Shown here: positions 3,459-30,913 of the stretch, in pieces | How positions within the stretch are numbered: position 1 is the stretch's first letter | Layout of the letters: each line of letters opens with the position of its first letter | IMG/VR virus record: IMGVR_UViG_3300027733_000034 | Span: 1-64,000 of that record | Length of the DNA stretch: 64,000 nt | Reading direction: 5' to 3' (one strand) | From: a virus | Position numbers and translations under genes: made by a program | The notes under the pieces: model-generated | Databases searched by the model: none | Told to the model about the DNA's origin: nothing | Seen by the model: the letters and a program-made list of their open reading frames with translations, nothing else

Positions 3459-5246
3459 CTAAATTTTATTAAAAAAATGTTTAAAAGAACCTAAAACAAC
3501 TTTATTTTTGTAAAAAATTGAATCGTTTAATTCTTGAATTGGTTCTATTATTTCACATTCTTCTGATACATCCCACAGTTTTGATTTAAATTTAAACGGT
3601 ATTATTATTTTTTTAGCAGATTCTGCAGAGATACTACCACCGGTACTTTGTAACTTTGGTAAATTAAAATAAACTGTTGATCTAGAATAAATGCCGCCGC
3701 GAACGTTTTGTAATTTTGGTAAATCCAGACTAAGGTTTATGAACCCACAGTTGATATTACCGTTACATGTTTGCAACTGTGGCAAATATAAATTAGCAAC
3801 ACTTAAAACAAACAGTCCTTTGCATGTTCGTAACTGAGGCAATTCTATAATAGAAGCAAATGTAGAGTGAAAGGTTCCAACAATTTGTAACTGCGGAAAA
3901 CTTAATTTTTTAGCATCAACCGAACTAATGTTCTTACAAATTTGTAATTGGGGTGCACTTAGACTTGAAATTTGATCTGCGGTAATATTGCGACATTTTT
4001 GTAGTTGTGGTAAACTCAATTCTCCAATTGACTTGATTTTAATATTTCCGTTAATTTCTTTTAAATTATTTAAATTAGGAAAGAAATATTTACTAGTTGA
4101 AACAATGTCCCCATTACAAACCCCATCAATTATCTTGCTTAGTATTTCTTTCTCTTCCTTTTCAAACAACTCTTTATCTCGCTTTAAATATTTCTGATAC
4201 AATATAGGATCATTGTTACATATTTCAATATCAAATTTATCTTGCGGTTTTCTTAGTGTTAATTGTTGTTTTCTAACAATGAAAAATCTTTGTTTTTCTT
4301 TATCTGCCAATAATTCATAAATGTCTTCAGACATTTTAGGACCAACACTAATCCATTCATTTCTTAGATCATCATTCAAACTTTGAAACAAATCTAAAGG
4401 TATTAACATACCAAACTTCAATACATCAGCCCTTTCTTTGTACGAAAATTGTTTAAATTTTTTCAAAGATGGAGATTTTGCAAATTTTTTTAATTTGTCT
4501 TGATATATTCTTTCCGGGTCTGTTAGAGGTTTATTAACAAATAATGTTTCATATTTCGCCAACACCGGAAATTTTTTAATTATTTCATTCCATCCACCGT
4601 GTATCGTTTGAGTTCCATTATCTGCAAAAGTCCATTCCCAACCATCTGCAGTTTTATCTAGAACCATAATATGATGTTTATCTGATTGAGGCACTTTCTT
4701 GAAGAAAATAAAATAAAACGTGGAAGCCTTAGTAAGTCTATAAGTGCCATACATATTTCCTCCTCCGGACCTAGAGATACAAAATTTATAAGCTCCTCCG
4801 TAACGAACACATTTATGTTCGTCATCTCCTTTAAGAATTAAAACATTTTCATCGTCTGCCAAAACATTTTCTTTATCTTCTCCACTAATATCTAGGGGTT
4901 TTAAATTTTTGTTTCTGGATTGATATTGTGTTTTATCTCTTTTTTCATGCACCTCTTCGGTCCAATTTAAATAAGAGTTAAAATTTGTTAAAGGTTTATT
5001 TTGAAAGAATTTTTGATATGCTTTATAATCTTCTACTAAAGATCCTTGATCTGCATGTTGATCTTTAATCCAAGAATAAAGAATCGGAATATGTTCCGGC
5101 TTAAAAATTAACTTACCAGCTTCTTTTTGGAGAAAGAATTGGATGATATCTTGAGGAGCTTGAAGCTTGGTTAGTCCGGAAGAAATCATATCTTCCGCCG
5201 CACCTTCTAGGTAAAGTTGATACATTTTTAAATCGTCTGATAACAT
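3459..5246 (-). CDS. large phage protein with C-terminal leucine-rich (LPxLQ) repeats
   Basis: 595 aa; repeated LSLPQLQ/LSFPQLQ/LDLPKLQ units about 21-23 aa apart; TAAATA box 5 nt upstream of ATG. Confidence 0.8.
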   Translation of the reverse strand: MLSDDLKMYQLYLEGAAEDMISSGLTKLQAPQDIIQFFLQKEAGKLIFKPEHIPILYSWIKDQHADQGSLVEDYKAYQKFFQNKPLTNFNSYLNWTEEVHEKRDKTQYQSRNKNLKPLDISGEDKENVLADDENVLILKGDDEHKCVRYGGAYKFCISRSGGGNMYGTYRLTKASTFYFIFFKKVPQSDKHHIMVLDKTADGWEWTFADNGTQTIHGGWNEIIKKFPVLAKYETLFVNKPLTDPERIYQDKLKKFAKSPSLKKFKQFSYKERADVLKFGMLIPLDLFQSLNDDLRNEWISVGPKMSEDIYELLADKEKQRFFIVRKQQLTLRKPQDKFDIEICNNDPILYQKYLKRDKELFEKEEKEILSKIIDGVCNGDIVSTSKYFFPNLNNLKEINGNIKIKSIGELSLPQLQKCRNITADQISSLSAPQLQICKNISSVDAKKLSFPQLQIVGTFHSTFASIIELPQLRTCKGLFVLSVANLYLPQLQTCNGNINCGFINLSLDLPKLQNVRGGIYSRSTVYFNLPKLQSTGGSISAESAKKIIIPFKFKSKLWDVSEECEIIEPIQELNDSIFYKNKVVLGSFKHFFNKI

Positions 5247-5333
5247 GTATATATTTACATCATTTTATTCTAGAACAGTTCCGGGTTTTATATCCTATTA
5301 TCTAGATCTCTGAATTCTTCTAAGGGTGGCATA

Positions 5334-11192: not shown

Positions 11193-14156
11193 TTAATTTA
11201 CGTAAGCAGCTTCATTTGAGAATATCAAAGCTTGAATCAGTGTTTCCCAAGGAGAGAATGCTACGCGTTCTACCAATTCTCCTTGGTTAACAATAGCTCT
11301 TTTAGGATCTTTGTTATTCATTTGTTGCTTAAATTTAGCTTCTGCTAATTTTTTACCTTGAGCTGTAATAGTTTCAGCTCCGGTTTTAACACTAGCTTGT
11401 TCTTTATTTTCTTTGATTAAGAAATCCAAAGCCATCTTTCTTTCTTTAGGAGTTGGATAACGCTGTAAAACAATTTTGAACACTGCTGTAATACCTTTAT
11501 CTGTATTTTTTTCTTTGACCACAGCGTCTACTAATTCCGGGCGTTGAGATATCTTTTGAACTACTTCTGCTACTAACGGACTATTCATTAGGAATAGAGC
11601 TTGTTGAGGCACTACTGTAGAGGCTCTGCGGGTATTGGGTTGATCTGGATTAGACATATCAAACTGCATCAATACATCTGGCATATCTAACCTGTCTATG
11701 TAAGCATAAGCAGTTCTTCTAAAAATGATTGGCTCTTCTGAAACATTGAAAGAAGGTCCCCCATACGGCTCTCTTTGCAATACTCTGCCCATGCTCAATA
11801 AAGAATCTCTATAAGCTTCAAAATCCAATCTTCTTACATTAGCTCTCCACAAAAGATTGTTGCCTGGATCTATTTTGCTATATTCTTTTAATGTATCTAC
11901 ACTAAAGGTATTGCTAGATTGTTGATATACTTTGGAAAGCATGATTGCTTTGTGCAAAGCCTTGACACTCCATGCTGGTTTCTGTGGACCGTAGTCTGTC
12001 ATAAACCAAGTTGCTAAGAAATCTAATAATTCTGGATGGGTTGGATTGCCAGCCGAATTACCTAAATCATCCGGTGTTTTAACCAAACCTTCACCAAAAT
12101 GATACATCCAAACCCTATTAACCAAAACTCGAGCTGTCAAAGGATTATCTTTGTTTGCAATGGCTTCTGCTAATTCTAGTCGACCACTTTCTTTTGAACT
12201 AAAAGGAGTTTTTTCTGGATTCAATATTTCTAAAAATCTTCTAGGTACCACAGTGACTTGTCCAGGTATAGGTGGATTGCCTCTTGGAAACAAAGGAGAG
12301 TCTGTGGGTTTGGCTGCATCTTCAACAGCCATGGCTCTAACTAGACCATTATTGGAGGTGAGTTTAAATTCATTAATTTGTTGAATAAAATTGGAAGCTC
12401 TTAATTTGTCTTGCATTTCAATAGACCATTTCTTGGCTTCTACTCTCATAGTTTCAAAATTAATGTTCTTAGCCAAATTCAAAGATGTTGGAAAAACAGC
12501 CATGTTGTAAGGATCCTTATCATCCGGATCAAAAGCGTTGTTGGTTATTTGAACAAACAAATTTGCTCGTTGAGATTCAAATTCTTGGAACAACTTGCCC
12601 ACTAATTCTGCGACAGCATGTATATCATCTGGCAAAGGTTGTGGTTGTTGTTTAAGAAAATTGATTACGATTGGGGAATATGTTTTTGTGTCTTGCAACA
12701 TCTTAGACAAGACGTCTTCTCTATTTTCTTTGGTGTGAACTAATTTGAAGAACGGTCCTAGAATTTTGCCGTTGGGATTAAATTGACGACCCACTGCACT
12801 CTCAATGTGCCTTGCTATTCTAGCATCCCATTTATTTTTAGTTTGAATCTCTGCAGCTAGCTTTTTACGATCTGCATTTGAATCTTTGCCCATTAAAATA
12901 ATATACTCAGCTATAGAAGAAGCGTTTTTGCCAAAGAAGTCTGCTTCTTCTCTTTGAATCTTGTAAAATGCTTCAACTGCTTTTTGTTCTAGTTCATTTA
13001 GTTTGGTTTGAAATTCTTGGAAACCTTCTTTTTTGCTAATTATTGGTCCTTCGGTTGGTTCTGTACAGCTAAGAAATACTCCCTTCAAAGCATAGTAGTC
13101 TGTAATGGTCAACGGATCAAATTTGTGATCATGGCAACGAATACAGGCTAGAGTCAAACCCAACATGCCTCTGCCTACAGCATCAATACGATCGTTTATT
13201 GTATCACTGACATTGTTGAATCGTTGACCAATGGTCATGAATCCCAGAGCTGCTAAATTAGAAACGTTGTTATCTGGAATTCTATCTGCAGCCAATTGAT
13301 TTTTTAAAAATGTATCATAAGGCATGTCTGTGTTGATAGCATCAAAAACCCAATTTCTATAGGTCCAAGCATATGGCAAACGGTAATCATCTAACCTTTG
13401 AAAAGTTGTGATGCCAGTGGTATCTGAATATCTTGCAGTATCCAACCAATGTCTTCCCCATCTTTCTCCATATCCTTTGTCTGCTAAAAGTCTATCAATT
13501 ACTTTTTCATAAGCTTTTGGAGATTCATCTTGAATAAATTGTTCAATTTCCTTTGGAGTCGGAGGCAAACCAATAAGATCAAAATAAGCTCTTCTTAGTA
13601 AAATTTCTTTACTTGCAAGAGGAGCAGGTATGATGCCTTTTTCTTCTAATTTAGAAAGAATAAAATAATCAAGCTTATTATAGCACCAAGATTCATTTTT
13701 AACTGTTGGCACCTTGGGAACCTGAGGTACTTTGAATGCCCAATGATCTCTTTTGTCTTTGAGTTCTCCAGAAGCTCTCGTATCATAAGCTCCTTGTTCA
13801 ATCCATTTAGTCAGCAAAGCTATTTGTTCATCAGAAAGCTTTTTCTTTTCAGGCATCCTAAGATCTCCATCCCAGTTGATAGCTTTGATAAATGTGCTTT
13901 CTTTAATATTATGAAAGTCGATTACCTTGCCATTTTCTCCTCCTTTGAGGAGGCTTTCATGAGAATCTAAGCTAAGGCCTGCTTTAGTTTTGCCTTTGGT
14001 AACAGAATGACAATCCATACATTGCTCTGTAAGCAGAGGCAATATCTCTTTGTCAAAAGTCTGTTGCTGTTCAGGAGTAGGATCTACTCTTCCAAAACTA
14101 GTTACGATGAGCAGTGAGCTCATCACCACACTCAACCCAACGTATGTTTTTCTCAT
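11193..14156 (-). CDS. PSD1 and planctomycete cytochrome c domain protein (PSCyt1 + DUF1549/PSCyt2 + DUF1553/PSD1)
   Basis: signal peptide; CMDCH heme motif; HWAF, LLRRAYFDLIGLPPT, GERWGRHWLDTARYSDT, CIRCHDHKFDP, SGRLELAEAI..NPLTARVLVNRVW..HFG, PTHPELLDFLA, PQQALFLMNS; ATG 14156 lies 1 nt after the DUF1501 stop. Confidence 0.93.
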   Translation of the reverse strand: MRKTYVGLSVVMSSLLIVTSFGRVDPTPEQQQTFDKEILPLLTEQCMDCHSVTKGKTKAGLSLDSHESLLKGGENGKVIDFHNIKESTFIKAINWDGDLRMPEKKKLSDEQIALLTKWIEQGAYDTRASGELKDKRDHWAFKVPQVPKVPTVKNESWCYNKLDYFILSKLEEKGIIPAPLASKEILLRRAYFDLIGLPPTPKEIEQFIQDESPKAYEKVIDRLLADKGYGERWGRHWLDTARYSDTTGITTFQRLDDYRLPYAWTYRNWVFDAINTDMPYDTFLKNQLAADRIPDNNVSNLAALGFMTIGQRFNNVSDTINDRIDAVGRGMLGLTLACIRCHDHKFDPLTITDYYALKGVFLSCTEPTEGPIISKKEGFQEFQTKLNELEQKAVEAFYKIQREEADFFGKNASSIAEYIILMGKDSNADRKKLAAEIQTKNKWDARIARHIESAVGRQFNPNGKILGPFFKLVHTKENREDVLSKMLQDTKTYSPIVINFLKQQPQPLPDDIHAVAELVGKLFQEFESQRANLFVQITNNAFDPDDKDPYNMAVFPTSLNLAKNINFETMRVEAKKWSIEMQDKLRASNFIQQINEFKLTSNNGLVRAMAVEDAAKPTDSPLFPRGNPPIPGQVTVVPRRFLEILNPEKTPFSSKESGRLELAEAIANKDNPLTARVLVNRVWMYHFGEGLVKTPDDLGNSAGNPTHPELLDFLATWFMTDYGPQKPAWSVKALHKAIMLSKVYQQSSNTFSVDTLKEYSKIDPGNNLLWRANVRRLDFEAYRDSLLSMGRVLQREPYGGPSFNVSEEPIIFRRTAYAYIDRLDMPDVLMQFDMSNPDQPNTRRASTVVPQQALFLMNSPLVAEVVQKISQRPELVDAVVKEKNTDKGITAVFKIVLQRYPTPKERKMALDFLIKENKEQASVKTGAETITAQGKKLAEAKFKQQMNNKDPKRAIVNQGELVERVAFSPWETLIQALIFSNEAAYVN

Positions 14157-14157
14157 A

Positions 14158-15525
14158 TTAAACAATTATATCTTTAATTACTTCACCAAAATTATCTGTC
14201 AATCTAAAATTACGACCATTGTAATTGTATGTCAATTTCTTATGATCAAATCCCATCAAGTGCAAAATAGTTGCATGCAAATCATGAATGGTAACAATAT
14301 CTTCAACTGCTTTAGCCCCTGTCTCATCTGTCTTACCGTATCTCATTCCACCTTTGACATTCCCTCCAGCCATCCAGATTGAGAATGCTTTGCCATTGTG
14401 ATCTCTACCAGGAGTACCTGCTCCGCCGCCAGCAGTTGCTGTGCGACCAAATTCTCCGCCCCATATTACCAAAGTAGAATCAAGTAGTCCGCGTTGTTTT
14501 AAGTCTGTAAGCAATCCAGCAATAGCTGTATCGTATTTTGCCGCGGTATTAGTCATATTGAGCTTAATGTTTTCATGATGGTCAAACCCTCCAACATTGA
14601 CCTGAACAAACCGCACTCCTCTTTCTACTAATCTACGAGCCACCATTAACTTGGCTCCGTCTTCTGTACGTCCATAAAGGTCTTTAATATTTTCTGGTTC
14701 TTTAGATACATCAAAAGCATCCGTAGCTTCTGTTTGCATTTTGAATGCAGTTTCAAATGCTTCAATACGAGATTCTAGTTGAATGTCTTTTTGAAGCTTT
14801 TCCATGTGCATGAAATTCATGCTACGAGAAAATTCAATTTGTCTGCGCTGTCTTTCTTGTGTAGAGAATTGACTGGTAAGGTTTGCTAATATCTCATCTG
14901 AACGCATTCCTTGACGATATTGAACATTGCAGCCTTGGAACATTCCGGGTAAGAAAGCACATTGTCTCCAATTTGGATTGCCATTCAAAGAAATGAATCC
15001 GGGCATGTTTTGATTTGCTGTACCAAGACCATATACCATCCAGCTACCAACACTAGGCTTGGGTAATTGAGAATCTCCGGTGTTCATCATCTTAGCAGCG
15101 AGATCGTGATCTGGAATAGGGGTTTGCATAGAGTTAATAATAGCTAACTCATCTGCATGGGATCCTACTTTACTCCATACTTCTGAAATGTTCAATCCAG
15201 ATTTGCCAAACTGAGGGAATTCAAACGGAGAAGCAAATAAGAATCCGCCGCTCTCGGCTTTCATTCCATCTTTGGCTTTTAATTCTGGTTTATAGTCAAA
15301 AGTATCAATATGGGAAGGTGCTCCACTAGCAAACAATTGAATGATTGCCTTAGCTTTTACAGGGAAGTGAGGATTCCTAGCAGCCAGAGGGGATGCAGCT
15401 TCTGCTGTATTTGCATTAATACCATAAAGAGCAGCTAGTGATAGACCACCCAGACCTGCTCCAAAGTCTGTGAGGAATTCTCTACGGTTGAGAGAGGAAT
15501 TGGGATGATTGCCGCAGTCGCTCAT
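14158..15525 (-). CDS. DUF1501 family protein (Tat-exported, sulfatase/alkaline-phosphatase-like)
   Basis: twin-Arg LNRREFL signal; GAPSHIDTFDYKP, ARRLVERGVRFVQV, DHH, GEFGRT, GRDH, HDLHATILHLMG, RLTD; start moved to ATG 15525. Confidence 0.93.
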   Translation of the reverse strand: MSDCGNHPNSSLNRREFLTDFGAGLGGLSLAALYGINANTAEAASPLAARNPHFPVKAKAIIQLFASGAPSHIDTFDYKPELKAKDGMKAESGGFLFASPFEFPQFGKSGLNISEVWSKVGSHADELAIINSMQTPIPDHDLAAKMMNTGDSQLPKPSVGSWMVYGLGTANQNMPGFISLNGNPNWRQCAFLPGMFQGCNVQYRQGMRSDEILANLTSQFSTQERQRRQIEFSRSMNFMHMEKLQKDIQLESRIEAFETAFKMQTEATDAFDVSKEPENIKDLYGRTEDGAKLMVARRLVERGVRFVQVNVGGFDHHENIKLNMTNTAAKYDTAIAGLLTDLKQRGLLDSTLVIWGGEFGRTATAGGGAGTPGRDHNGKAFSIWMAGGNVKGGMRYGKTDETGAKAVEDIVTIHDLHATILHLMGFDHKKLTYNYNGRNFRLTDNFGEVIKDIIV

Positions 15526-15530
15526 ATAAC

Positions 15531-15538
15531 TATTTATA
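15531..15538 (-). promoter_or_regulatory. T4-type late promoter TATAAATA for the DUF1501 operon
   Basis: TATAAATA-GTTAT-ATG. Confidence 0.65.
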
Positions 15539-15548
15539 CCTTTATAGT

Positions 15549-15584
15549 TCAAACGCCTTCAGAACCGAATCTGAAGGCGTTTGA
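15549..15584. terminator. perfect 15-bp inverted repeat (terminator/insulator hairpin)
   Basis: TCAAACGCCTTCAGA-accgaa-TCTGAAGGCGTTTGA. Confidence 0.7.
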
Positions 15585-18814: not shown

Positions 18815-19552
18815 TTATTTTTTAATAATATCAAATTCCTTACATTCTTTTAATGTATATAAAAAAATAATGTTATTGTATAGAGATTTTAAAATTTCTA
18901 TTTTGTTTTGTTGAGTTTTTACAGCGTATGGGTTTTTTGGATCCAAATATAAATCATATGTAGGAAGATAAAAATCTGGAAAATATTTATGAGTTTGATT
19001 TTCTGAATCCACCCACTGAATAGGTAATGGTCTGATCCAAGAAATTTGAAGATAGTCTAATCTTTTTGCCAGTTCTAATTCCCAAGAAGAATCTAACATT
19101 ATTCCATTATACTCTATCATTCCTTTTTTTAATCTTCTGTGAGAAGAAGATAAAGCTTTTTCTCTTATAAGCTGTTTTGCTTTGTCTGTATGTTTTCTGC
19201 CGAGGAATGCGTTATGTAATACATGAGAATATTTTCCGTTTTTATGGGCTTCTTTAATTTTTTCTTTATGTTCTATAGTTAGAGGCTTTCCTTTGTTTTG
19301 TTTTGTAACTTCTAATATTCGTTTTGATAATTGATTTTTGTCTTCAATAGATCTTGGATTGTAGGAGCACCATCTGCTATGGTTTGCTCGTTGAGATGCA
19401 GATAGAGTTTCAAAGTTTAAATCGCAATATTTACAAGATGAGAGTTTTTGAAATGGCTTGTATGATCCGTTACAAGATGCAAAATGTCTATTAAAATTAG
19501 ACCTTTGATTTCTAAATTCATGATTACATTTAGAACAAATTATTTTTTTCAT
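18815..19552 (-). CDS. putative free-standing homing endonuclease (Zn fingers, NUMOD3-like segments, PD-(D/E)xK/TnsA-like C-terminus)
   Basis: CSKC..H..C, CKYC..H..C; GRKHTDKAK; DSSWE; YFPDFYLP..DLYLDPK; start moved to 19552 because the longer ORF runs through tRNA-Arg. Confidence 0.75.
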   Translation of the reverse strand: MKKIICSKCNHEFRNQRSNFNRHFASCNGSYKPFQKLSSCKYCDLNFETLSASQRANHSRWCSYNPRSIEDKNQLSKRILEVTKQNKGKPLTIEHKEKIKEAHKNGKYSHVLHNAFLGRKHTDKAKQLIREKALSSSHRRLKKGMIEYNGIMLDSSWELELAKRLDYLQISWIRPLPIQWVDSENQTHKYFPDFYLPTYDLYLDPKNPYAVKTQQNKIEILKSLYNNIIFLYTLKECKEFDIIKK

Positions 19553-19563
19553 ATTTTTTGAAA

Positions 19564-19638
19564 TGGTGTCGCTGACTGGATTCGAACCAGCAACCAATTT
19601 CTTAGAAGGAAATTGCTCTTCCATTGAGCTACAACGAC
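19564..19638 (-). tRNA. trnR: tRNA-Arg(TCT)
   Basis: cloverleaf; anticodon arm ATTTC-CT-TCT-AA-GAAAT; TTCGAAT; CCA. Confidence 0.95.
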
Positions 19639-20128: not shown

Positions 20129-20204
20129 TGGCACGCCGAGTAGGTACCGCCCCTACATAAGACGGTTTTGGAGACCGTTGCCTTGCTTGTCGAGCCATCG
20201 GCGC
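20129..20204 (-). tRNA. trnW: tRNA-Trp(CCA), non-canonical D/T loops (copy B)
   Basis: ACGGT-CT-CCA-AA-ACCGT; T-loop GGCGGTA; G73, CCA. Confidence 0.85.
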
Positions 20205-20258: not shown

Positions 20259-20720
20259 TTATTTATTTAAAGCATAAGTCTGACTAAAGATATCTTTTTT
20301 AATGACTCCGTAATCACCTGGACCATGCTTAACAATATAATCTTCTCCAGTCTTATATTCTAACTCTGCTCCCCAAGAAGTCTTTACTTTGCCGTCTGAA
20401 TCTGCTAGCTTAGCAAGCTTTACAATCTTCTTAGGAGAGGCAGAACCGTCTCCGTTGTCATCCTTCAACTCTTGAAACTTTTCTGGAGGCATAGAATACT
20501 TCTCTCCTTTTGGACCTGTCATAATATAGAACCCAGCTTTGTATTGCTGACGGCCTTCGAGTGTTTGAAGGGTTCCGTCTTGACTAGCTACCTCATAAGG
20601 TTCTATGGCTGGCTTTTTATAGGTCTGAAAAGAACCTTGTTGAAACCATTCATCTGTGATTTGTTCAATAATGATTCTTGTATAAGCTTCTTCTAGAAGT
20701 TGTTGGTCTTTGGTTTTCAT
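20259..20720 (-). CDS. PGDYG-family protein with KDxxLLEEAY leader
   Basis: TLEG...GEKY, GEDYIV.HGPGDYGVI..DIF..TY. Confidence 0.8.
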   Translation of the reverse strand: MKTKDQQLLEEAYTRIIIEQITDEWFQQGSFQTYKKPAIEPYEVASQDGTLQTLEGRQQYKAGFYIMTGPKGEKYSMPPEKFQELKDDNGDGSASPKKIVKLAKLADSDGKVKTSWGAELEYKTGEDYIVKHGPGDYGVIKKDIFSQTYALNK

Positions 20721-20750: not shown

Positions 20751-20826
20751 TGGCACGCCGAGTAGGTACCGCCCCTACATAAGACGGTTTTGGAGACCGT
20801 TGCCTTGCTTGTCGAGCCATCGGCGC
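20751..20826 (-). tRNA. trnW: tRNA-Trp(CCA), non-canonical D/T loops (copy A)
   Basis: identical to 20129-20204. Confidence 0.85.
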
Positions 20827-21692: not shown

Positions 21693-21769
21693 TGGCAACC
21701 CCAGTCGGATTCGCACCGAACATCTGTTGATTGAAAGTCAACTATCCTAACTAATTAGACGATGAGGTC
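21693..21769 (-). tRNA. trnE: tRNA-Glu(TTC), non-canonical elbow
   Basis: GTTGA-CT-TTC-AA-TCAAC; T-loop TGCGAAT; CCA. Confidence 0.9.
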
Positions 21770-21780
21770 ATTTATAAAAA

Positions 21781-21859
21781 TGGTGGAGCTTATCGGAATC
21801 GAACCGATCTGATATTCTCATTGCAAATGAGATGACCACACCAAGCAGTCCCAAACCCC
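21781..21859 (-). tRNA. trnA: tRNA-Ala(TGC)
   Basis: G3:U70 pair, TCTCA-TT-TGC-AA-TGAGA, A73, CCA. Confidence 0.93.
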
Positions 21860-21866
21860 AATAAAA

Positions 21867-21970
21867 TGGAGCCAACAGTCGGGATTGAACCGACGACCGG
21901 CGGTTTATAAGAACTGTCTCGGTTGGTGACAACTCTCAAAACCGCTGCTCTACCACTGAGCTATGTTGGC
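21867..21970 (-). tRNA. trnT: tRNA-Thr(TGT)-like gene with a 29-nt hairpin insertion (putative intron) in the anticodon
   Basis: perfect acceptor, D, anticodon and T stems plus CCA; 36-nt anticodon loop TTTG[AGAGTTGTCACCAACCGAGACAGTTCTTA]TAA. Confidence 0.8.
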
Positions 21971-21982
21971 GAATAATAAAAA

Positions 21983-22058
21983 TGGTGAGCCTGGTTGGAC
22001 TCGAACCAACGACCAACTGGTTAAAAGCCAATTGCTCTGCCAACTGAGCTACAGGCTC
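21983..22058 (-). tRNA. trnK: tRNA-Lys(TTT)
   Basis: canonical cloverleaf, CT-TTT-AA, CCA. Confidence 0.96.
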
Positions 22059-22064
22059 TTAAAA

Positions 22065-22152
22065 TGGTGGGTAGTGTGGGTAACGATCCCACAGAGCATT
22101 TACATGCGCCGGTTCTACAAACCGGACCGTCTCCTTAACGGTATAACTACCC
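22065..22152 (-). tRNA. trnY: tRNA-Tyr(GTA)
   Basis: CCGGT-TT-GTA-GA-ACCGG, long variable arm, T-loop ATCGTTA, CCA. Confidence 0.88.
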
Positions 22153-22174
22153 TTTATACAAACTTATATTAAAC

Positions 22175-22250
22175 TATCAAAGAACAAAATTGGTGTGAGA
22201 CTTGTATCTCCGCTGTTAATAATTATAACCGGAAATGTGAGGGAAGCCAA
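22175..22250 (-). promoter_or_regulatory. tRNA operon promoter with leader hairpin and boxA-like element
   Basis: TTGGCT-N17-TATAAT (22250-22222); TGTTCTTTGATA at 22186-22175. Confidence 0.6.
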
Positions 22251-22303
22251 CTTTTTTTGTTTTTAACAGTTCACAAACCAGATCCGCAACGGTAAATATT
22301 GTT

Positions 22304-23122
22304 ATGAAATCACGATCTGAGAGATGGAGTATCGGGGCTGGAAAATATAATGAAGAACAATTGAAACAAAGACAAGAAGATTATAACAAAAATCCTGATG
22401 AGTGTTTGTTCTGCAAAAACTCAATGCCATACATTGCTTTATATGAAAGAAACAAACGTAAATTCTGTAATAGATCTTGTGCAGCTAAACACAATAATCA
22501 AAATCGTCTACAATCTAATCTTACGCGCAAAACAAACTTTGTATATCAAAAAGGACTAACAAAAGAAGCATGTTGCATTATTTGTCAAGCAAACATTAAG
22601 ATAGGAAAAAACTATAGTGCAAAGAAGGCTAAATGTGTTGATTGTAAAATAACTAAAACAAAAATTATGATGTGTAAGTGTTGTTCTAAAGAATTTAATA
22701 CGTCTGCTATTCGTAAGTGTTGTTCTGTAGAATGTTCTAAACGTTTAAAACAAAGGGGAGGTAGTCTGGGTGGAAAAATATCAGCTTCAAAGATTGTTAA
22801 AAGATCTAGAGATGAAATAAAATTATATAGTTTCTGTAAAAATTATTTTAATTCTGTAAGACACAATGAAATTATCTCAGATGGTTGGGATGCAGATATC
22901 ATTATAGATGATTACAAATTGGCTATACTCTGGAATGGACCTTGGCATTACAAACAATTGTCACTAAAGAATCATTCTTTAGCTCAAGTACAAAACCGAG
23001 ATAAAATCAAAACAGATGTTCTAACATCAGCTGGATGGAAAGTTTTATTCTTTAATGATAATAAATATACTCCAGAAAAGGCATTTCAATTTATAAAAGA
23101 AAGTTGCAGGGGCGGGATTTGA
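22304..23122 (+). CDS. putative homing endonuclease (multiple Cys-rich Zn ribbons, C-terminal Vsr/DUF559-like PD-(D/E)xK domain)
   Basis: several CxxC and FCNRSC/CCSVEC motifs; WDADI...LAILWNGPWHY...RDKIK...GW; antisense to the tRNA array. Confidence 0.75.
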   Translation: MKSRSERWSIGAGKYNEEQLKQRQEDYNKNPDECLFCKNSMPYIALYERNKRKFCNRSCAAKHNNQNRLQSNLTRKTNFVYQKGLTKEACCIICQANIKIGKNYSAKKAKCVDCKITKTKIMMCKCCSKEFNTSAIRKCCSVECSKRLKQRGGSLGGKISASKIVKRSRDEIKLYSFCKNYFNSVRHNEIISDGWDADIIIDDYKLAILWNGPWHYKQLSLKNHSLAQVQNRDKIKTDVLTSAGWKVLFFNDNKYTPEKAFQFIKESCRGGI

Positions 23123-23194
23123 ACCACTTATGCGCGTTTTAGTAGCTTCTTGGTTATGAGCCAAGCTAGATCGACCAGACTTCTATACCCTGCT
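23104..23194 (-). tRNA. initiator-type tRNA-Met(CAT) with extra nucleotides in the variable/T region, no encoded CCA
   Basis: A1xA72 mismatch, CTTGG-CT-CAT-AA-CCAAG, TTCAAAT T-loop; 25 nt instead of about 10 between the anticodon stem and T-loop. Confidence 0.65.
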
Positions 23195-23288
23195 ATTAAG
23201 ATGTGAAAGAACTAACCGCCTTCCCACTTGACGACCCCGCGGTTGATGTAATAATTATACTACAGGGGTTAATGGGAAACCACCTTTT

Positions 23289-23914: not shown

Positions 23915-24274
23915 ATGATAAGACATCTTAAAGCTCTCAAAGAATCTTTAGAAGGAAAGCCTCTTGCTGTGAGATCTTCTCATTGGTCTACTGTTAGAAA
24001 ACATCATCTTCAAAAACAACCTACCTGTGCGGCTTGTGGGGGTACACAAAAATTACAGGTTCATCACAAACAACCTTATCATTTGCATCCGGACTTAGAA
24101 CTAGAACCTACCAATCTTATTACTCTGTGTGAATATGGAGACATTGATTGTCATTTTAACATAGGTCATTATAGAGATTGGAAATCTTTTAATCCTAATG
24201 TGGAATTAGATGCTGCAGAAGAATTGTCTAGTCTCTCCCAGTGTCACACCACTTCTCAACCAGGTAAACCCTAA
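23915..24274 (+). CDS. HNH endonuclease family protein
   Basis: CAACG..LQVHHK.P....P.L.L..NLITLC....CH..GH. Confidence 0.8.
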   Translation: MIRHLKALKESLEGKPLAVRSSHWSTVRKHHLQKQPTCAACGGTQKLQVHHKQPYHLHPDLELEPTNLITLCEYGDIDCHFNIGHYRDWKSFNPNVELDAAEELSSLSQCHTTSQPGKP

Positions 24275-25220: not shown

Positions 25221-25457
25221 TTAGAGATTTTCAATTTCAGCCAACAATTCTTCGTCGGACTTTTTGCGATAGACTACATTGCCTTCTTCATTCAATTCCT
25301 TAGCAATGAAGCCTTCTGCTACCATATGTTCTAGATTGACCTGGACTCGCCATTGGATATAAGACTGATACTCTGCTTCAGAGAGGTTTTCAATTTCCTC
25401 ATCTGTAATACTGGCGTGACTACGATCTTTCCATTTGCTTAACGTGTTCTTAATCAT
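25221..25457 (-). CDS. hypothetical acidic protein
   Basis: start moved to MIKNTL, 6 nt after TTGAAG-N17-GATTAT. Confidence 0.65.
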   Translation of the reverse strand: MIKNTLSKWKDRSHASITDEEIENLSEAEYQSYIQWRVQVNLEHMVAEGFIAKELNEEGNVVYRKKSDEELLAEIENL

Positions 25458-25502
25458 GTTAATATAATCTTTGTTTTTAGTAGGAACTTCAAGAAAAAAT
25501 TT

Positions 25503-25603
25503 GTCTTCAGGTTGGATTCGAACCAACGGCGAGCGCTTTATCCCGGCATTTTGGCCCTTAACCATGAGGGAGCACTAGATCTACCAGCTGAGTTACTGAA
25601 GAC
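25503..25603 (-). ncRNA. tRNA-like RNA with a branched, expanded anticodon domain
   Basis: GTCTTCAG/CTGAAGAC acceptor, AGCTGGTA D-loop, GTTGG-TTCGAAT-CCAAC T arm; 33-nt insert within AGTGCT/AGCGCT; no CCA. Confidence 0.6.
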
Positions 25604-26435: not shown

Positions 26436-27056
26436 TTATGGATGGTGTAGGTTGTTAACATCTTTAGTGTCCATGATGGCTTCTACTTCCGCAAAACTTA
26501 GAGGCTTGCCATGGACATCCCAACCGCAATCTAGGATCTTATGAGTCTTGTTTTCTGGTCGAGAGATAGGCAGAGTGCCGTGAGAATGTCCGCAGAGGTG
26601 CATACCACCATCAGACATACCATCCCAGCTGTGAATGGGAAAATGAAAACAAACAAAAGTCTTTCTACCTTTTCTAAAGGTAAAATAATGATGCAAATAA
26701 CGCACCATAGTTCCTCGAATAGAACCAGCTATTTGATGAACAGAACCTCCATAGGATTTCTGAATAGGGTTGTTATGATTACCCCACAACATCCAAACAG
26801 CTTTAACCTTCAGCTGGAACATAATACTTTGATACTGTTCTAAAGAAGTATTAAGACAAAAGTCTCCTAGATGTAGAAGAATACCATTTTCTCCAACAGT
26901 TTCATTAATGATACGAATCATATCTTGATTCATCTCTTCTGGATTTTGATAACCTCTCTTTCCATAGAGAAATTCTTTATTATGCCCGAAGTGGGTATCT
27001 GAAGTAACATACAAATTATTGTATTCTTCTTCTGGCATTTTGTAAATTACTTGCAT
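26436..27056 (-). CDS. calcineurin-like metallophosphoesterase
   Basis: SDTHFGH, LGDF, GNHN, HFP, GHSH motifs. Confidence 0.9.
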   Translation of the reverse strand: MQVIYKMPEEEYNNLYVTSDTHFGHNKEFLYGKRGYQNPEEMNQDMIRIINETVGENGILLHLGDFCLNTSLEQYQSIMFQLKVKAVWMLWGNHNNPIQKSYGGSVHQIAGSIRGTMVRYLHHYFTFRKGRKTFVCFHFPIHSWDGMSDGGMHLCGHSHGTLPISRPENKTHKILDCGWDVHGKPLSFAEVEAIMDTKDVNNLHHP

Positions 27057-27068
27057 AAATAGTATTGT

Positions 27069-27338
27069 ATGAAATTTGATGCTCTAGTCAACACTCTTTT
27101 AGAAAAACATAACCAACCTTGTACAAAGGTGACTGGTCAACAACAGTCCTCGCGTAAAGACAAGAAATATATGAGATGTGCTAGAGTCAATGGTAAACTT
27201 AAACGGGTTCATTATGGGGATCCTAATATGAGAATTAAAAAGTCAAATCCAAAGAGAAGAAAGAGTTTCCGGGCAAGACATGGTTGTGCAGATGCTAAAC
27301 CCGGAACTCCAAAATATTTTTCTTGCAAGAATTGGTGA
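27069..27338 (+). CDS. small basic conserved T4-like phage protein
   Basis: VHYGDPNMRIKKSNPKRRKSFRARHGC...YFSCKNW; ATAAATA box upstream. Confidence 0.75.
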   Translation: MKFDALVNTLLEKHNQPCTKVTGQQQSSRKDKKYMRCARVNGKLKRVHYGDPNMRIKKSNPKRRKSFRARHGCADAKPGTPKYFSCKNW

Positions 27339-28422
27339 TATAAGTCTTCCACAGCTTGTGCGGATCTAATTCTTTTCCATCCAGGATGGAAAAACCAATC
27401 CAACTATAATCAGGAAACAACTCCAATATTTTTTGAGCTTTTCCTTTACGGTCTAAAGATATAAAATCTGGATTAATTAAATATACATTTATCTGCATTA
27501 TCTTATATGTAATCAATCTAATCTTATCATATAGCTCATCCATTAGAGGTTTCAAAGCAGTTACTAACTCCCAATCAAAATTGTCAGCTAGTTTCTTTTC
27601 AAAATCTTCTCTAACTGGTTGGCCATATTCCACAAACAGATCAAACAAATGATCGACAGTCTTGACTCCTGTAAATACTCGATGCAAGTACAAATATCGA
27701 GGAGTCTTGACTTTCTTTAAAATTTGTCCGTTGTTGGCATAGATAACAACTCCTTCTATAGAGGTTTCATCCTTAAGATACTCGGCTACATTTTGTAAAT
27801 TTAAAGTGTATCTTTCTGGACGTAACACGCCAAAAAATCTTGCTTGCTGATCTAAAGCATCTTGAGGAAGATAATAATACGGATCATGCTTACCCATAAA
27901 TGAATAAGAGTCGTGTCCTACAATACCAATAAGCCACAAAGTAGGTTCTTCAGATTCCCGAAGAACAATGCGATTAGTAGGAGTAGTCCATTCAAATAAA
28001 AGTGAAAACTTTTCAGAGTCTAACCAAAAATTATTAAAGGCATCAGGATACTTGGTTTTCAGCAATTCTATTTCATGTCCGTTTTCTAACTGAGATGCAT
28101 CTATAGTCCCACGGGTACGAACAATAAGCTCACCATTATGTCGAGACACAATTAAGAGACTTCCATCAAGTTTGCGGATAAATTCTAGGTCCGTATGGTC
28201 GTCTATAGGTTCAAATTCTGGTTGTTCTCCTAGATTTACAAACTTTTTAAAACCAGCAGACACGAGCTTTCTATCAGACTTACGCCAGATAGAAGAACGA
28301 AAGATTTTGTTTTCGTCTGTCCAAGTTACCCCCATGTCTTTAGGGGTAACCAAGATGCATTCATCTCCAGCTACTATACAATCTTTGATGTTAAAATTGG
28401 TTACATCAATTGGCTGAAACAT
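27295..28422 (-). CDS. ATP-dependent RNA ligase, T4 Rnl1-like
   Basis: GFKKFVNLGE, motif I KLDGSL, FE, motif IV EGVVI, motif V KKVK. Confidence 0.85.
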   Translation of the reverse strand: MFQPIDVTNFNIKDCIVAGDECILVTPKDMGVTWTDENKIFRSSIWRKSDRKLVSAGFKKFVNLGEQPEFEPIDDHTDLEFIRKLDGSLLIVSRHNGELIVRTRGTIDASQLENGHEIELLKTKYPDAFNNFWLDSEKFSLLFEWTTPTNRIVLRESEEPTLWLIGIVGHDSYSFMGKHDPYYYLPQDALDQQARFFGVLRPERYTLNLQNVAEYLKDETSIEGVVIYANNGQILKKVKTPRYLYLHRVFTGVKTVDHLFDLFVEYGQPVREDFEKKLADNFDWELVTALKPLMDELYDKIRLITYKIMQINVYLINPDFISLDRKGKAQKILELFPDYSWIGFSILDGKELDPHKLWKTYITNSCKKNILEFRV

Positions 28423-28714
28423 ATTCTAAATTATAAACTGAATTAAGAGTCTTGAAACCGGTATCAGTAACTTCTGTTACTACTGAAGAAGTAAAGATTC
28501 CTCCCATTTTTACTCCACAACGGACTTCTCTGTCTACCACAACTGGTTTACCTACCTCTGGTTCAGATATAAGATACCCTTCTAACCAGTAGTCTACTGG
28601 AATAGATACATTTCCATTACATTTACCCGCTTCGTAATTTTCAAAGTTGGGGGTAGGAAATTCTGGATTATCACAAACTGCTAGTTTGGTAATTTTTACA
28701 TACTTTCTTTTCAT
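28406..28714 (-). CDS. hypothetical protein
   Basis: PEVG...FTSSVV..V...FKTLNSVY; leaderless promoter. Confidence 0.7.
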   Translation of the reverse strand: MKRKYVKITKLAVCDNPEFPTPNFENYEAGKCNGNVSIPVDYWLEGYLISEPEVGKPVVVDREVRCGVKMGGIFTSSVVTEVTDTGFKTLNSVYNLEYVSAN

Positions 28715-29475: not shown

Positions 29476-29880
29476 CTATGAAAGATAAGTTGCCCATCTA
29501 TTTTTCATCACTTCAATAGTTTTTTCCGGAACATTATGAATGCTTCCGTAATTTCCATTCATCTGTCTAATATCTATTGGAACATTCAGCTTACTAGCCA
29601 AATCTGCATATGGTCTGAATTCTCTCTTGGTAGAAAATGTATTTGATACAATAACATTAAACTCTTGCTTCAAAGCTACTTCTGTCATAAACAGACACCA
29701 CTCATGAGCGTGTTTGAGAAGAGATGCATTGAATTTATATTCTCCGGTTATAGAATGCACAAAGAACATATCTGCTTCAAACCAACGAAAATTTTCTGGG
29801 TCTGTATTGAGGAGTCTTTGAGCTTCTGTAGATTTTCCAGAACCAGGTAATCCACGGATGATATAAAGAGTATTTTTCAT
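29476..29880 (-). CDS. P-loop kinase, polynucleotide-kinase-like (AAA_33)
   Basis: RGLPGSGKST, EADMFF, VSNTF, H.VP. Confidence 0.85.
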   Translation of the reverse strand: MKNTLYIIRGLPGSGKSTEAQRLLNTDPENFRWFEADMFFVHSITGEYKFNASLLKHAHEWCLFMTEVALKQEFNVIVSNTFSTKREFRPYADLASKLNVPIDIRQMNGNYGSIHNVPEKTIEVMKNRWATYLS

Positions 29881-29881
29881 T

Positions 29882-30913
29882 TTAATCTTTGAAATTTTGA
29901 TTAATAATTTTTACACTAAGCATTTTCTGTAATTTCTTACTATACATCAATTCATTATTTTGATTATAACCACGGAAGACAATGCCTTCTGCTGGTTTAT
30001 CATTAGGATACTTGATAGTATTGACCCAATTTTGCAATTCATCTATAGTTGAGAGGTTGAAATGTTTAAATAATTTAACAACTGGAACTCCTGGAATATT
30101 TGAATCAACTCCTAGACCATCGACCCAATTCAAAGGAAGAACTGGCTTCCGAGAAGGTACTTCAAACATGTTAAAGAGATATAAACTAACCTCTGGATAA
30201 CCAGCTGGATTACCTTGAATACCAGGTCCAGCAATTTCTCCTTGAATACAAAATCCAGGTTTAAGATTTTCTTGGATATTATATTTTCGAGCCATTTTCC
30301 AGTATACATTTTCGGTAGTATCTTTAAGCTCTAGATTACGAGAACAAACTCGAAAAGTACCATCCAATTCTTTAATATAAGTTGCAGAGGTTCCATCTAT
30401 TTTAAGAGTAGCTTCTACCCATTCAGCTTCTCCCAATTCATCTAATGCTTCTATGTTAGATTTAAGATTGTCTTCATCCGTTTTAGAAACCAAATGAGTG
30501 GGAAAGTCTCCTTTAACTTGTCCGGCTAGTTGAACTGGAATTGGTTTTTCATATTTGGTAATACCAAGCATACTAGCCAGAGAAACATCTTCAGAAGAAT
30601 CATCCATATGATCCCAGACTTCTTGAGCACTAACCAAAGTCTTAGGAAAGATGAGACCTTGAGAAATAGCTCCGCGAAGCTTGGCGGTCTTAACTCGGAT
30701 AGGTTTAGAAGGATCATTCTTATCCCAAAGAAATTTATTCCATTCTCTAGGAGTGAGGACGGTATCAATAGGAACAAAAATAATTTGATCACCTATTTTA
30801 TATTCATCTTTCTTGATAACACTTTGCCAACCCAGAACTCTAGCCAGTTCAATTTTATCGGCTCCTTCTATAGGAAGAATTTCTGAGATAATTTCTAGAG
30901 ATGCTAATTTCAT
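29882..30913 (-). CDS. RNA ligase, DRB0094/Rnl5 family
   Basis: N-terminal OB (LAS..I..PIEGADKIELA.V.GW), KIDGTS, CSRN, QGEIAGPGIQGN, EGIV, VKIIN. Confidence 0.9.
   Translation of the reverse strand: MKLASLEIISEILPIEGADKIELARVLGWQSVIKKDEYKIGDQIIFVPIDTVLTPREWNKFLWDKNDPSKPIRVKTAKLRGAISQGLIFPKTLVSAQEVWDHMDDSSEDVSLASMLGITKYEKPIPVQLAGQVKGDFPTHLVSKTDEDNLKSNIEALDELGEAEWVEATLKIDGTSATYIKELDGTFRVCSRNLELKDTTENVYWKMARKYNIQENLKPGFCIQGEIAGPGIQGNPAGYPEVSLYLFNMFEVPSRKPVLPLNWVDGLGVDSNIPGVPVVKLFKHFNLSTIDELQNWVNTIKYPNDKPAEGIVFRGYNQNNELMYSKKLQKMLSVKIINQNFKD

Follow-up and report, generated by a model that had tools for sequence, protein, structure and literature searches.

Introns in the transfer RNA (tRNA) genes of bacteria and phages are, in the textbook view, self-splicing group I ribozymes; protein-dependent tRNA splicing belongs to archaea and eukaryotes. 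Among phages, the tRNA genes of Lak megaphages carry introns described as 'enigmatic', including one in tRNA-Thr(TGT) that is the same across cohorts and missing from some genomes, and the authors describe phage tRNA introns as previously unreported (Devoto et al. 2019, PMC6784885). Here we describe a tRNA-Thr(UGU) gene interrupted within its anticodon by a 29-nucleotide (nt) hairpin, carried on a 64,000-nt stretch of DNA (the window) that forms the first 64 kb of the viral record IMGVR_UViG_3300027733_000034 (G000). The best reading of the sequence and its predicted fold, held tentatively, is that the hairpin would be excised from the RNA and the tRNA halves rejoined, which may be a route so far undemonstrated in bacteria and their viruses. 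Literature searches brought up no account of short hairpin introns in phage tRNAs, nor of splicing by RNase III plus a ligase (the word 'intron' does not occur in PMC6409571).

The record comprises 131,532 bp, with a CheckV completeness estimate of 61% and hence a missing share of about 39%. Relatives were recruited via the major head protein, the best 80 of 597 being kept. Below, G001-G004 are complete relatives, G001 being the nearest to G000; L110-L113 are viral contigs; and X2, X3 and X5 are sequencing runs examined as contigs.

The identity of the gene as tRNA-Thr(UGU), and the position of its insert between nucleotides 35 and 36, can be regarded as settled on comparison of sequences. The original prediction, made from the letters of the window alone, had described four perfect stems, an encoded CCA, a 36-nt anticodon loop and a Thr-type acceptor, and each of these was found in the 104-nt gene, the loop being measured between the strands of the anticodon stem. 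G1-C72 and C2-G71 are identity elements for threonyl-tRNA synthetase in E. coli, and the acceptor stem opens G-C, C-G, as these elements require. The Rfam tRNA model RF00005 matched 21870-21970 on the minus strand over its full length (model 1-71 of 71, cut-off 29 bits, E 9.7e-13 and 4.8e-11 in two scans), with 32 nt where the model expects 3 loop positions. ARAGORN at default settings reported 17 genes, none of them Thr, and so missed the interrupted gene; with introns allowed it found a 29-nt intron and labelled the gene Ser(tga), because it put the cut one base further 3′.

Uninterrupted tRNA-Thr(tgt) genes of 71-75 nt, one each, are present in 4/4 complete relatives, among whose tRNA genes 0/69 were flagged for introns. 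As predicted, removal of the insert leaves an ordinary tRNA-Thr: the joined exons are identical to the G001 gene at 72/75 positions, and all three differences keep pairing, one being an A-U versus G-U acceptor pair and the other two making up a compensatory C-G versus U-A pair in the anticodon stem. In L110-L112 the gene is again uninterrupted and reads TGT, with the 3′ half exactly as in G000 and an anticodon stem of a third, again complementary, version. Viral contigs with the same anticodon stem (n = 14) had the anticodons TGT (10), CGT (2), CCA (1) and TCT (1). Only one split of the 36-nt loop, with 4 bases on the 5′ side and 3 on the 3′ side, yields the orthologous 7-nt loop, which assigns 21908-21936 (29 nt), between G35 and U36, to the insert. 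BLAST of the insert against the genome verified these coordinates and found a single copy there. BLAST with the exons found tRNA-Thr genes of cultured T4-like phages: the 5′ exon matched the annotated tRNA-Thr of Acinetobacter phage Acj9 (query 1-34, 94%), the match stopping exactly at the insert boundary, and the 3′ exon matched the annotated tRNA-Thr of cyanophages S-RSM4 and S-RIM8 (query 61-104, 84%).

The gene lies in a tightly packed array, with tRNA-Lys 12 nt before it and tRNA-Ala 7 nt after it. Of the 18 RF00005 matches in the record, all of which fall inside the window, no other is a Thr candidate, in agreement with the earlier statement that the array holds one Thr gene. Of the Thr codons in 92 open reading frames (ORFs) of ≥150 amino acids (aa), 34% are ACA and 39% ACT, so that a UGU tRNA would be useful to the phage. 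Features of the locus are collected in Table 1.

Table 1. The interrupted tRNA-Thr gene, its parts and the RNA-repair enzymes encoded nearby. Columns: feature, position in the window, strand, evidence.
Interrupted tRNA-Thr(UGU) gene, 104 nt, CCA encoded	21867..21970	-	Rfam RF00005 58.6 bits; cloverleaf minimum free energy (MFE) -41.1 kcal/mol, z -5.35
5′ exon, RNA nt 1-34: acceptor 5′ strand, D arm, anticodon-stem 5′ strand, loop UUUG (canonical 32-35)	21937..21970	-	Alignment to uninterrupted G001 ortholog
29-nt insertion, RNA nt 35-63: 9-bp hairpin, two adjacent G-U pairs, 9-nt loop ACCAACCGA	21908..21936	-	Boundaries set by ortholog
3′ exon, RNA nt 64-104: loop UAA (canonical 36-38), anticodon-stem 3′ strand, variable loop, T arm, acceptor 3′ strand, U73, CCA	21867..21907	-	Identical 28-mer in four intronless viral contigs
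Rnl1-family RNA ligase, 375 aa, candidate sealing enzyme	27295..28422	-	Pfam RNA_lig_T4_1 E 1.4e-14; G001 ortholog 61% identity
P-loop kinase, 134 aa, polynucleotide-kinase-like, possible end-healing enzyme	29476..29880	-	Pfam AAA_33 E 3.4e-11; PHROG polynucleotide kinase 1.7e-10
Second RNA ligase, 343 aa, N-terminal OB domain plus nucleotidyltransferase	29882..30913	-	Pfam PHA02142 OB-fold 4.8e-22; RNA_ligase 1.2e-15
Calcineurin-type metallophosphoesterase, 206 aa, possible 3′-end healing enzyme	26436..27056	-	Pfam Metallophos 2.7e-5

The full 104-nt RNA is predicted to fold as a cloverleaf in which the anticodon arm is drawn out to an 18-bp rod with the 9-nt loop ACCAACCGA at its tip, and 0/200 shuffled sequences folded as well. 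All 18 rod pairs had a pair probability of at least 0.83, and U36 is the sole bulged base in both the MFE and the centroid structure. The insert itself forms the hairpin with G-U pairs that had been foreseen, and the two bases at its 3′ end pair with U34 and G35 of the anticodon, so that the anticodon is predicted to be buried. The arm folds at -18.7 kcal/mol in the tRNA sense versus -14.6 kcal/mol in the antisense; the difference arises because the mismatches of the rod are G-U in the sense strand. Excision of nt 35-63 at the ortholog-defined junctions would, in the predicted rod, leave a 2-nt 3′ overhang.

Neither of the familiar kinds of tRNA intron was recognised. Group I introns need a catalytic core of hundreds of nt, and the insert has only 29. 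The two 3-nt bulges separated by a 4-bp helix that make up a bulge-helix-bulge are lacking, as the original prediction had also reported, the helix being continuous over its 18 bp with one 1-nt bulge. A cmscan of 21850-21990, at E up to 1, found no intron family and no Rfam family besides tRNA. A 29-nt hairpin cannot splice itself, and continued use of the tRNA would require that bacterial cells provide some route by endonuclease and ligase.

The interrupted gene is not an assembly artefact. It was recovered at 104/104 nt in L113, a metagenome contig of a second phage, and contigs of X2, X3 and X5 run through the insert with no gap, differing at 0 positions over 21752-22700, 2 over 21856-21970 and 0 over 21878-21970, respectively. 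These three runs stem from two further studies, and the allele occurs in runs labelled 2017 and 2022. The contigs of X2-X5 showed no joint skipping 21908-21936, contigs being informative about presence rather than absence. In the stretches they have in common, L113 and G000 are 90-96% identical, but the tRNA array of L113 is rearranged: the gene upstream of Thr is tRNA-Ser/Sec-like in L113 versus tRNA-Lys in the window, and the Ala, Lys, Gln and Leu tRNA genes of L113 are non-orthologous to those of the window. The upstream gene, at 10875-10965 of L113, was called tRNA-Ser(tga) by ARAGORN and matched tRNA-Sec in Rfam (47.4 bits, cut-off 47). No second Thr gene was found within the 12.5 kb of L113 examined.

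Searches for the insert elsewhere found little. A pattern allowing any 10-40-nt insert at the same site gave 0 matches in viral contigs, a 20-mer of the insert had 0 matches in viral contigs and 0 in 185,579 GTDB genomes, and BLAST against the genome plus 2.17 Mb of collected loci returned only the insert itself and L113; nothing here points to a repeated element, to a source in a host or to derivation from a CRISPR repeat. Ten partial related records have either no tRNA-Thr or no tRNA whatever, and G005 likewise lacks a tRNA-Thr. The insert fits the pattern seen in Lak phages, lying in a phage tRNA gene, missing from some relatives and identical where present. The search of relatives for same-site insertions that had been suggested alongside the original prediction therefore bore fruit in part, yielding L113, X2, X3 and X5, but no covarying hairpins, all copies being identical. 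The accompanying worry, that the gene might be a one-off pseudogene, fared similarly: seven more distant relatives are without the insert, yet L113 and the three further runs keep it unchanged.

The sequence shared by G000 and L113 has changed less than its surroundings. Over 16 ORFs common to the two, 328/7036 sites differ (4.7%), as do 130/890 four-fold degenerate sites (14.6%; an approximate count, the first two codon bases being unchecked in L113), with 7/46 and 17/86 four-fold differences in the two ORFs nearest the Thr gene. At the four-fold rate, the probability of finding no change is ~0.010 for the 29-nt insert and ~7e-8 for the 104 nt; at the all-site rate it is 0.25 and 0.007, respectively. 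A tRNA-like gene of the same array, taken for comparison, is only 82% identical between G000 and L113, and both flanks of the Thr gene differ where its 104 nt do not. Stems, conserved loop bases and CCA are all intact. Given a neutral divergence of ~15% between the two phages, the absence of change argues against a decaying pseudogene, and the allele appears stable, its conservation exceeding what neutral change would leave, barring a recent exchange of the gene.

RNA-repair enzymes are encoded close by. The original prediction had pointed to two RNA ligases; these stand 5.3 and 7.9 kb from the Thr gene, and with a kinase and a phosphoesterase that it did not mention they make up four enzyme genes within 9 kb. 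In T4, anticodon-loop damage by PrrC is healed by Pnkp and sealed by Rnl1, and the same enzyme classes are encoded in G000. With the Rnl1 protein as sole query no viral relative was found; cultured phages are <30% identical. The ligases are not confined to phages that have the insert, as will be seen below.

Taken together, these observations make it plausible, if somewhat short of an even prospect, that the gene is a working tRNA-Thr(UGU) that gained a 29-nt hairpin between G35 and U36 in one freshwater T4-like lineage. Its exons are orthologous to an uninterrupted Thr(UGU) gene, which 4/4 complete relatives and L110-L112 possess, and a need for the tRNA is therefore counted in favour of this reading, as is the failure to find any further Thr gene in either G000 or L113. 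A protein endonuclease would take the hairpin out of the transcript, and the tRNA halves, kept together by the tRNA body, would be rejoined so that the orthologous 7-nt loop is restored. The likeliest cutter would be a double-strand-specific RNase III-type enzyme of the host, proposed because the junctions are staggered in the predicted rod and would give the 2-nt 3′ overhang; RNase III acts on double-stranded stems of about two helical turns and cuts them with a 2-nt stagger. It leaves 3′-OH and 5′-phosphate ends, which an ATP-dependent Rnl1-type ligase can seal, and the phage Rnl1-type ligase, acting directly on such ends, would be the likeliest sealer. Should the cutter instead leave cyclic-phosphate and 5′-OH ends, the neighbouring kinase and phosphoesterase could heal them first. 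The phage RNA-repair kit would in this way double as a splicing machine, and the tRNA would be made only where the kit is active. In this specific form, with excision by host RNase III (or another double-strand RNA nuclease) and resealing by the phage ligase, the scheme would amount to protein-only, two-enzyme tRNA splicing; it is a possibility we consider on the unlikely side.

Several points weigh against excision and rejoining. Seven related records (G001-G004, L110-L112) do without the insert, and insert-free G001 has all four enzyme genes, at 46-61% identity, so that the cassette is not insert-specific. No match to Ribonucleas_3_3, Ribonuclease_3, tRNA_int_endo (PF01974) or RtcB was found in the 131.5-kb record (61% complete), a search that includes the splicing endonuclease whose presence elsewhere in the genome the original prediction had proposed looking for; the cutter would thus be a host enzyme or lie in the missing 39%. 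A bulged rod of 18 bp would rank among the shorter RNase III substrates, and the predicted 2-nt stagger rests on two extra base pairs, for which we estimate a chance of ~1 in 7. All copies of the insert are identical, so no covariation shows selection on the hairpin structure. Among tRNAs common to G000 and L113, 3/14 are 100% identical, the array is mosaic, and four-fold divergence per gene spans 1/26 to 18/46, so that recent exchange of this one gene could explain its identity without selection. Finally, 0/12 of the listed sequencing runs are RNA.

The main rival to splicing is that the RNA stays unspliced and does not decode, being kept as a stable tRNA-framed hairpin whose rod or 9-nt loop has another job, such as occupying a host tRNA-targeting nuclease or other RNA-binding protein, while the tRNA body would supply processing and stability. 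We consider this rather unlikely. The decoy of the original prediction, an unspliced RNA hiding its anticodon from host anticodon nucleases, has no specific support. Conservation of all 104 nt, loop included, is equally compatible with this rival and with splicing; the predicted fold leaves no anticodon base-pairing to spare; and tRNA-shaped genes with an enlarged anticodon region exist elsewhere (25503-25602 of the same array, with homologs in G001 and L113, and the rod-type genes of L136 and L169). Harder to accommodate is that exact removal of the insert restores the orthologous loop, with the four 5′ and three 3′ loop bases unchanged, and that the phage would be left without a Thr tRNA, though 4/4 complete relatives keep one. 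No target or partner is known for such an RNA. The insert 20-mer is unmatched in viral contigs and in the 185,579 genomes, and the scan gave no match to a CRISPR-repeat or other Rfam family.

Quite unlikely, in our judgement, is a young pseudogene, that is, a recently inactivated tRNA gene whose copy in L113 reflects recent recombination between co-circulating phages and not selection. Such an origin would agree with the lack of the insert in seven related records, with the absence of insert variation that would show selection, and with a mosaic array in which several tRNA genes have been replaced by non-orthologous ones, homing-endonuclease-like genes are present and 3/14 common tRNAs are also 100% identical. 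Against this, the flanks differ between G000 and L113 while the 104 nt do not, local neutral divergence being 15-20%; the allele occurs in runs labelled 2017 and 2022 from different studies; no secondary damage is seen in stems, conserved loop bases or CCA; and the gene is the sole Thr gene in both phages.

Less probable again is a role at the DNA level, compatible with splicing, in which the insert would be the footprint of a small palindromic mobile element, or would abolish a homing-endonuclease site aimed at intronless tRNA-Thr, any effects on RNA being secondary. The array contains three endonuclease-like ORFs (18815-19624, 22304-23122 and 23915-24274), tRNA genes move as cassettes between these phages, and in L113 a 354-aa ORF, LAGLIDADG-like by eye, is inserted at the 5′ end of rnl1. 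The insert is, however, single-copy, with nothing similar in 2.17 Mb of loci save L113 and none in viral contigs or GTDB genomes; it has no target-site duplication; its G-U pairs favour the RNA sense strand; and L113 bears the insert yet lacks ORF 22304-23122, the closest of the endonuclease-like ORFs. An intron of archaeal or eukaryal type, cut by a bulge-helix-bulge splicing endonuclease, would likewise be short, in the anticodon loop and paired with the anticodon, but is close to excluded by the continuous helix with one 1-nt bulge in place of 3-nt bulges 4 bp apart, the position at 35|36 and not 37|38, the lack of a tRNA_int_endo match in the 131.5-kb record, and the T4-like character of the phage, whose DUF1501 gene is closest to those of bacterial Planctomycetota and Verrucomicrobiota.

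The endonuclease-like ORFs inside the tRNA array (22304-23122, plus strand; 18815-19624, minus strand; 23915-24274, plus strand) have weak HNH and NUMOD3/endonuclease PHROG matches. The first is missing from both L113 and G001; as a necessary partner of the insert it was ruled out, since L113 has the insert without that ORF. The 354-aa ORF of L113 lies at 4023-5300 on the strand opposite to the Rnl1 gene, its likeness to LAGLIDADG proteins being judged by eye only, and its insertion has left behind an N-terminal remnant of 63 aa and a ligase whose N-terminus differs. In the window, a 102-aa ORF (28406-28714, minus strand) shares 17 nt with the beginning of rnl1. G000 and L113 possess this ORF and G001-G005 do not, a pattern that counts as one event because these are close relatives. 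It belongs to no PHROG family (no Pfam scan was made), and its 11 homologs are all unnamed and have no precomputed Pfam domains. Its AlphaFold model is all-beta (pLDDT 86.4), and Foldseek against PDB returned nothing at E ≤0.001. An Sm-like assignment was dropped, the best VIA-align Z of 5.3 being below the tool's stated background, and no function is claimed.

Other unusual tRNA genes were encountered. A survey of viral contigs for enlarged anticodon arms gave at least 114 matches, in 9 of which, among those listed, the stem strands close an enlarged loop. Of these nine, L140, L151, L192 and L210 look by eye like canonical 37|38 introns, as in viruses of eukaryotes (the contig name of L151 marks a giant-virus metagenome-assembled genome, MAG), L136 and L169 are of the rod type, and L233 is not tRNA-like. 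The L136 gene (171-263) has a long-rod anticodon arm with a 21-nt extra hairpin; that of L169 (5491-5596, minus strand) has a long-rod arm with a 15-bp hairpin and a UUCG loop, and no split of its loop gives U33. These examples hint that tRNA genes with enlarged anticodon arms recur. ARAGORN run with 10-60-nt introns on 127 loci returned mostly misparsed long-arm tRNAs and was dropped.

Within the array itself, a tRNA-like element at 25503-25602 (minus strand; G001 95433-95532, L113 11736-11833) has perfect acceptor and T arms and ~35 nt replacing the 17-nt anticodon arm (25.2 bits); it is 82% identical to the L113 copy, its anticodon is not readable, and it overlaps the start of ORF 25221-25565. 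A near-identical pair of odd tRNA-Trp(CCA)-like genes (20132-20204 and 20754-20826, minus strand) surrounds ORF 20259-20720; they have the T-loop GGCGGTA, score 31.6 bits each in Rfam and are both missed by ARAGORN. Further tRNAs of 90-95 nt have a long extra arm (window 23103-23195, minus strand; L099 7927-8017; L101 9810-9899; L105 15477-15567; L108 2588-2682); ARAGORN assigned that of the window to Met(cat) and those of the four complete relatives to Ile(tat).

The phage is an uncultured T4-like myovirus, with a gp23-type head protein, portal, gp43-type polymerase and UvsX as well as fibre and baseplate proteins of T4 type, and the lineage carrying the insert is a freshwater, lake one. The DUF1501 protein of the phage is closest to genes from MAGs of Verrucomicrobiota and Planctomycetota (41-54% identity), apart from a single 78% match at the end of a MAG contig. 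On this affinity the host is probably bacterial, and there are hints that it belongs to one of these two phyla. The nearest genomic relatives of the protein are in MAGs of Akkermansiaceae, Gemmata, Opitutales and Pirellulaceae. The gene and its 990-aa neighbour, read by eye as a planctomycete-type cytochrome c protein (DUF1549/DUF1553), occupy 11193-15552 on the minus strand.

If excision and rejoining do take place, a second role would fall to phage RNA ligases, which have long been regarded solely as a means of repair against anticodon nucleases, and a mechanism would be on offer for the unexplained introns of Lak megaphages. If instead the RNA remains unspliced, the locus would represent a tRNA-framed hairpin RNA that occurs naturally and is maintained by selection, a kind of RNA that has likewise received little study.

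Each of the known systems shares part of this arrangement. Group I self-splicing introns interrupt the anticodon loop of bacterial-type tRNAs, as here, but 29 nt cannot form their core. The protein-spliced introns of archaea and eukaryotes are likewise short, lie in the anticodon loop and pair with the anticodon, and their joining needs a ligase with or without healing by kinase and phosphoesterase; those systems use a splicing endonuclease with an RtcB or Trl1-type ligase, whereas the present locus has no bulge-helix-bulge, an insert at 35|36, no endonuclease gene found in the record and a virus of bacterial type. In the PrrC/Pnkp/Rnl1 repair of T4 the same enzyme classes are at work and two tRNA halves are rejoined in the anticodon loop; that pathway mends damage inflicted by the host and removes no nucleotides, where here it would complete removal of an encoded insert. 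The processing stems that RNase III cleaves in phage and rRNA precursors resemble the predicted rod in being about two helical turns long, and their 2-nt staggered cuts leave 3′-OH and 5′-phosphate ends; unlike them, the rod here has 18 bp with a 1-nt bulge and sits inside a tRNA, and we know of no RNase III product that is religated. The Lak introns differ in the length of the Thr intron, which suffices for a tRNA prediction of its own, and in residing in genomes of ~540 kb with a Prevotella host, the present insert being a plain 29-nt hairpin within the anticodon of a T4-like lake phage. Even so, in both cases a phage tRNA, Thr(TGT) included, bears an insert that is not a group I intron, that is identical where present, that some relatives do without, and for which no mechanism is known (PMC6784885).

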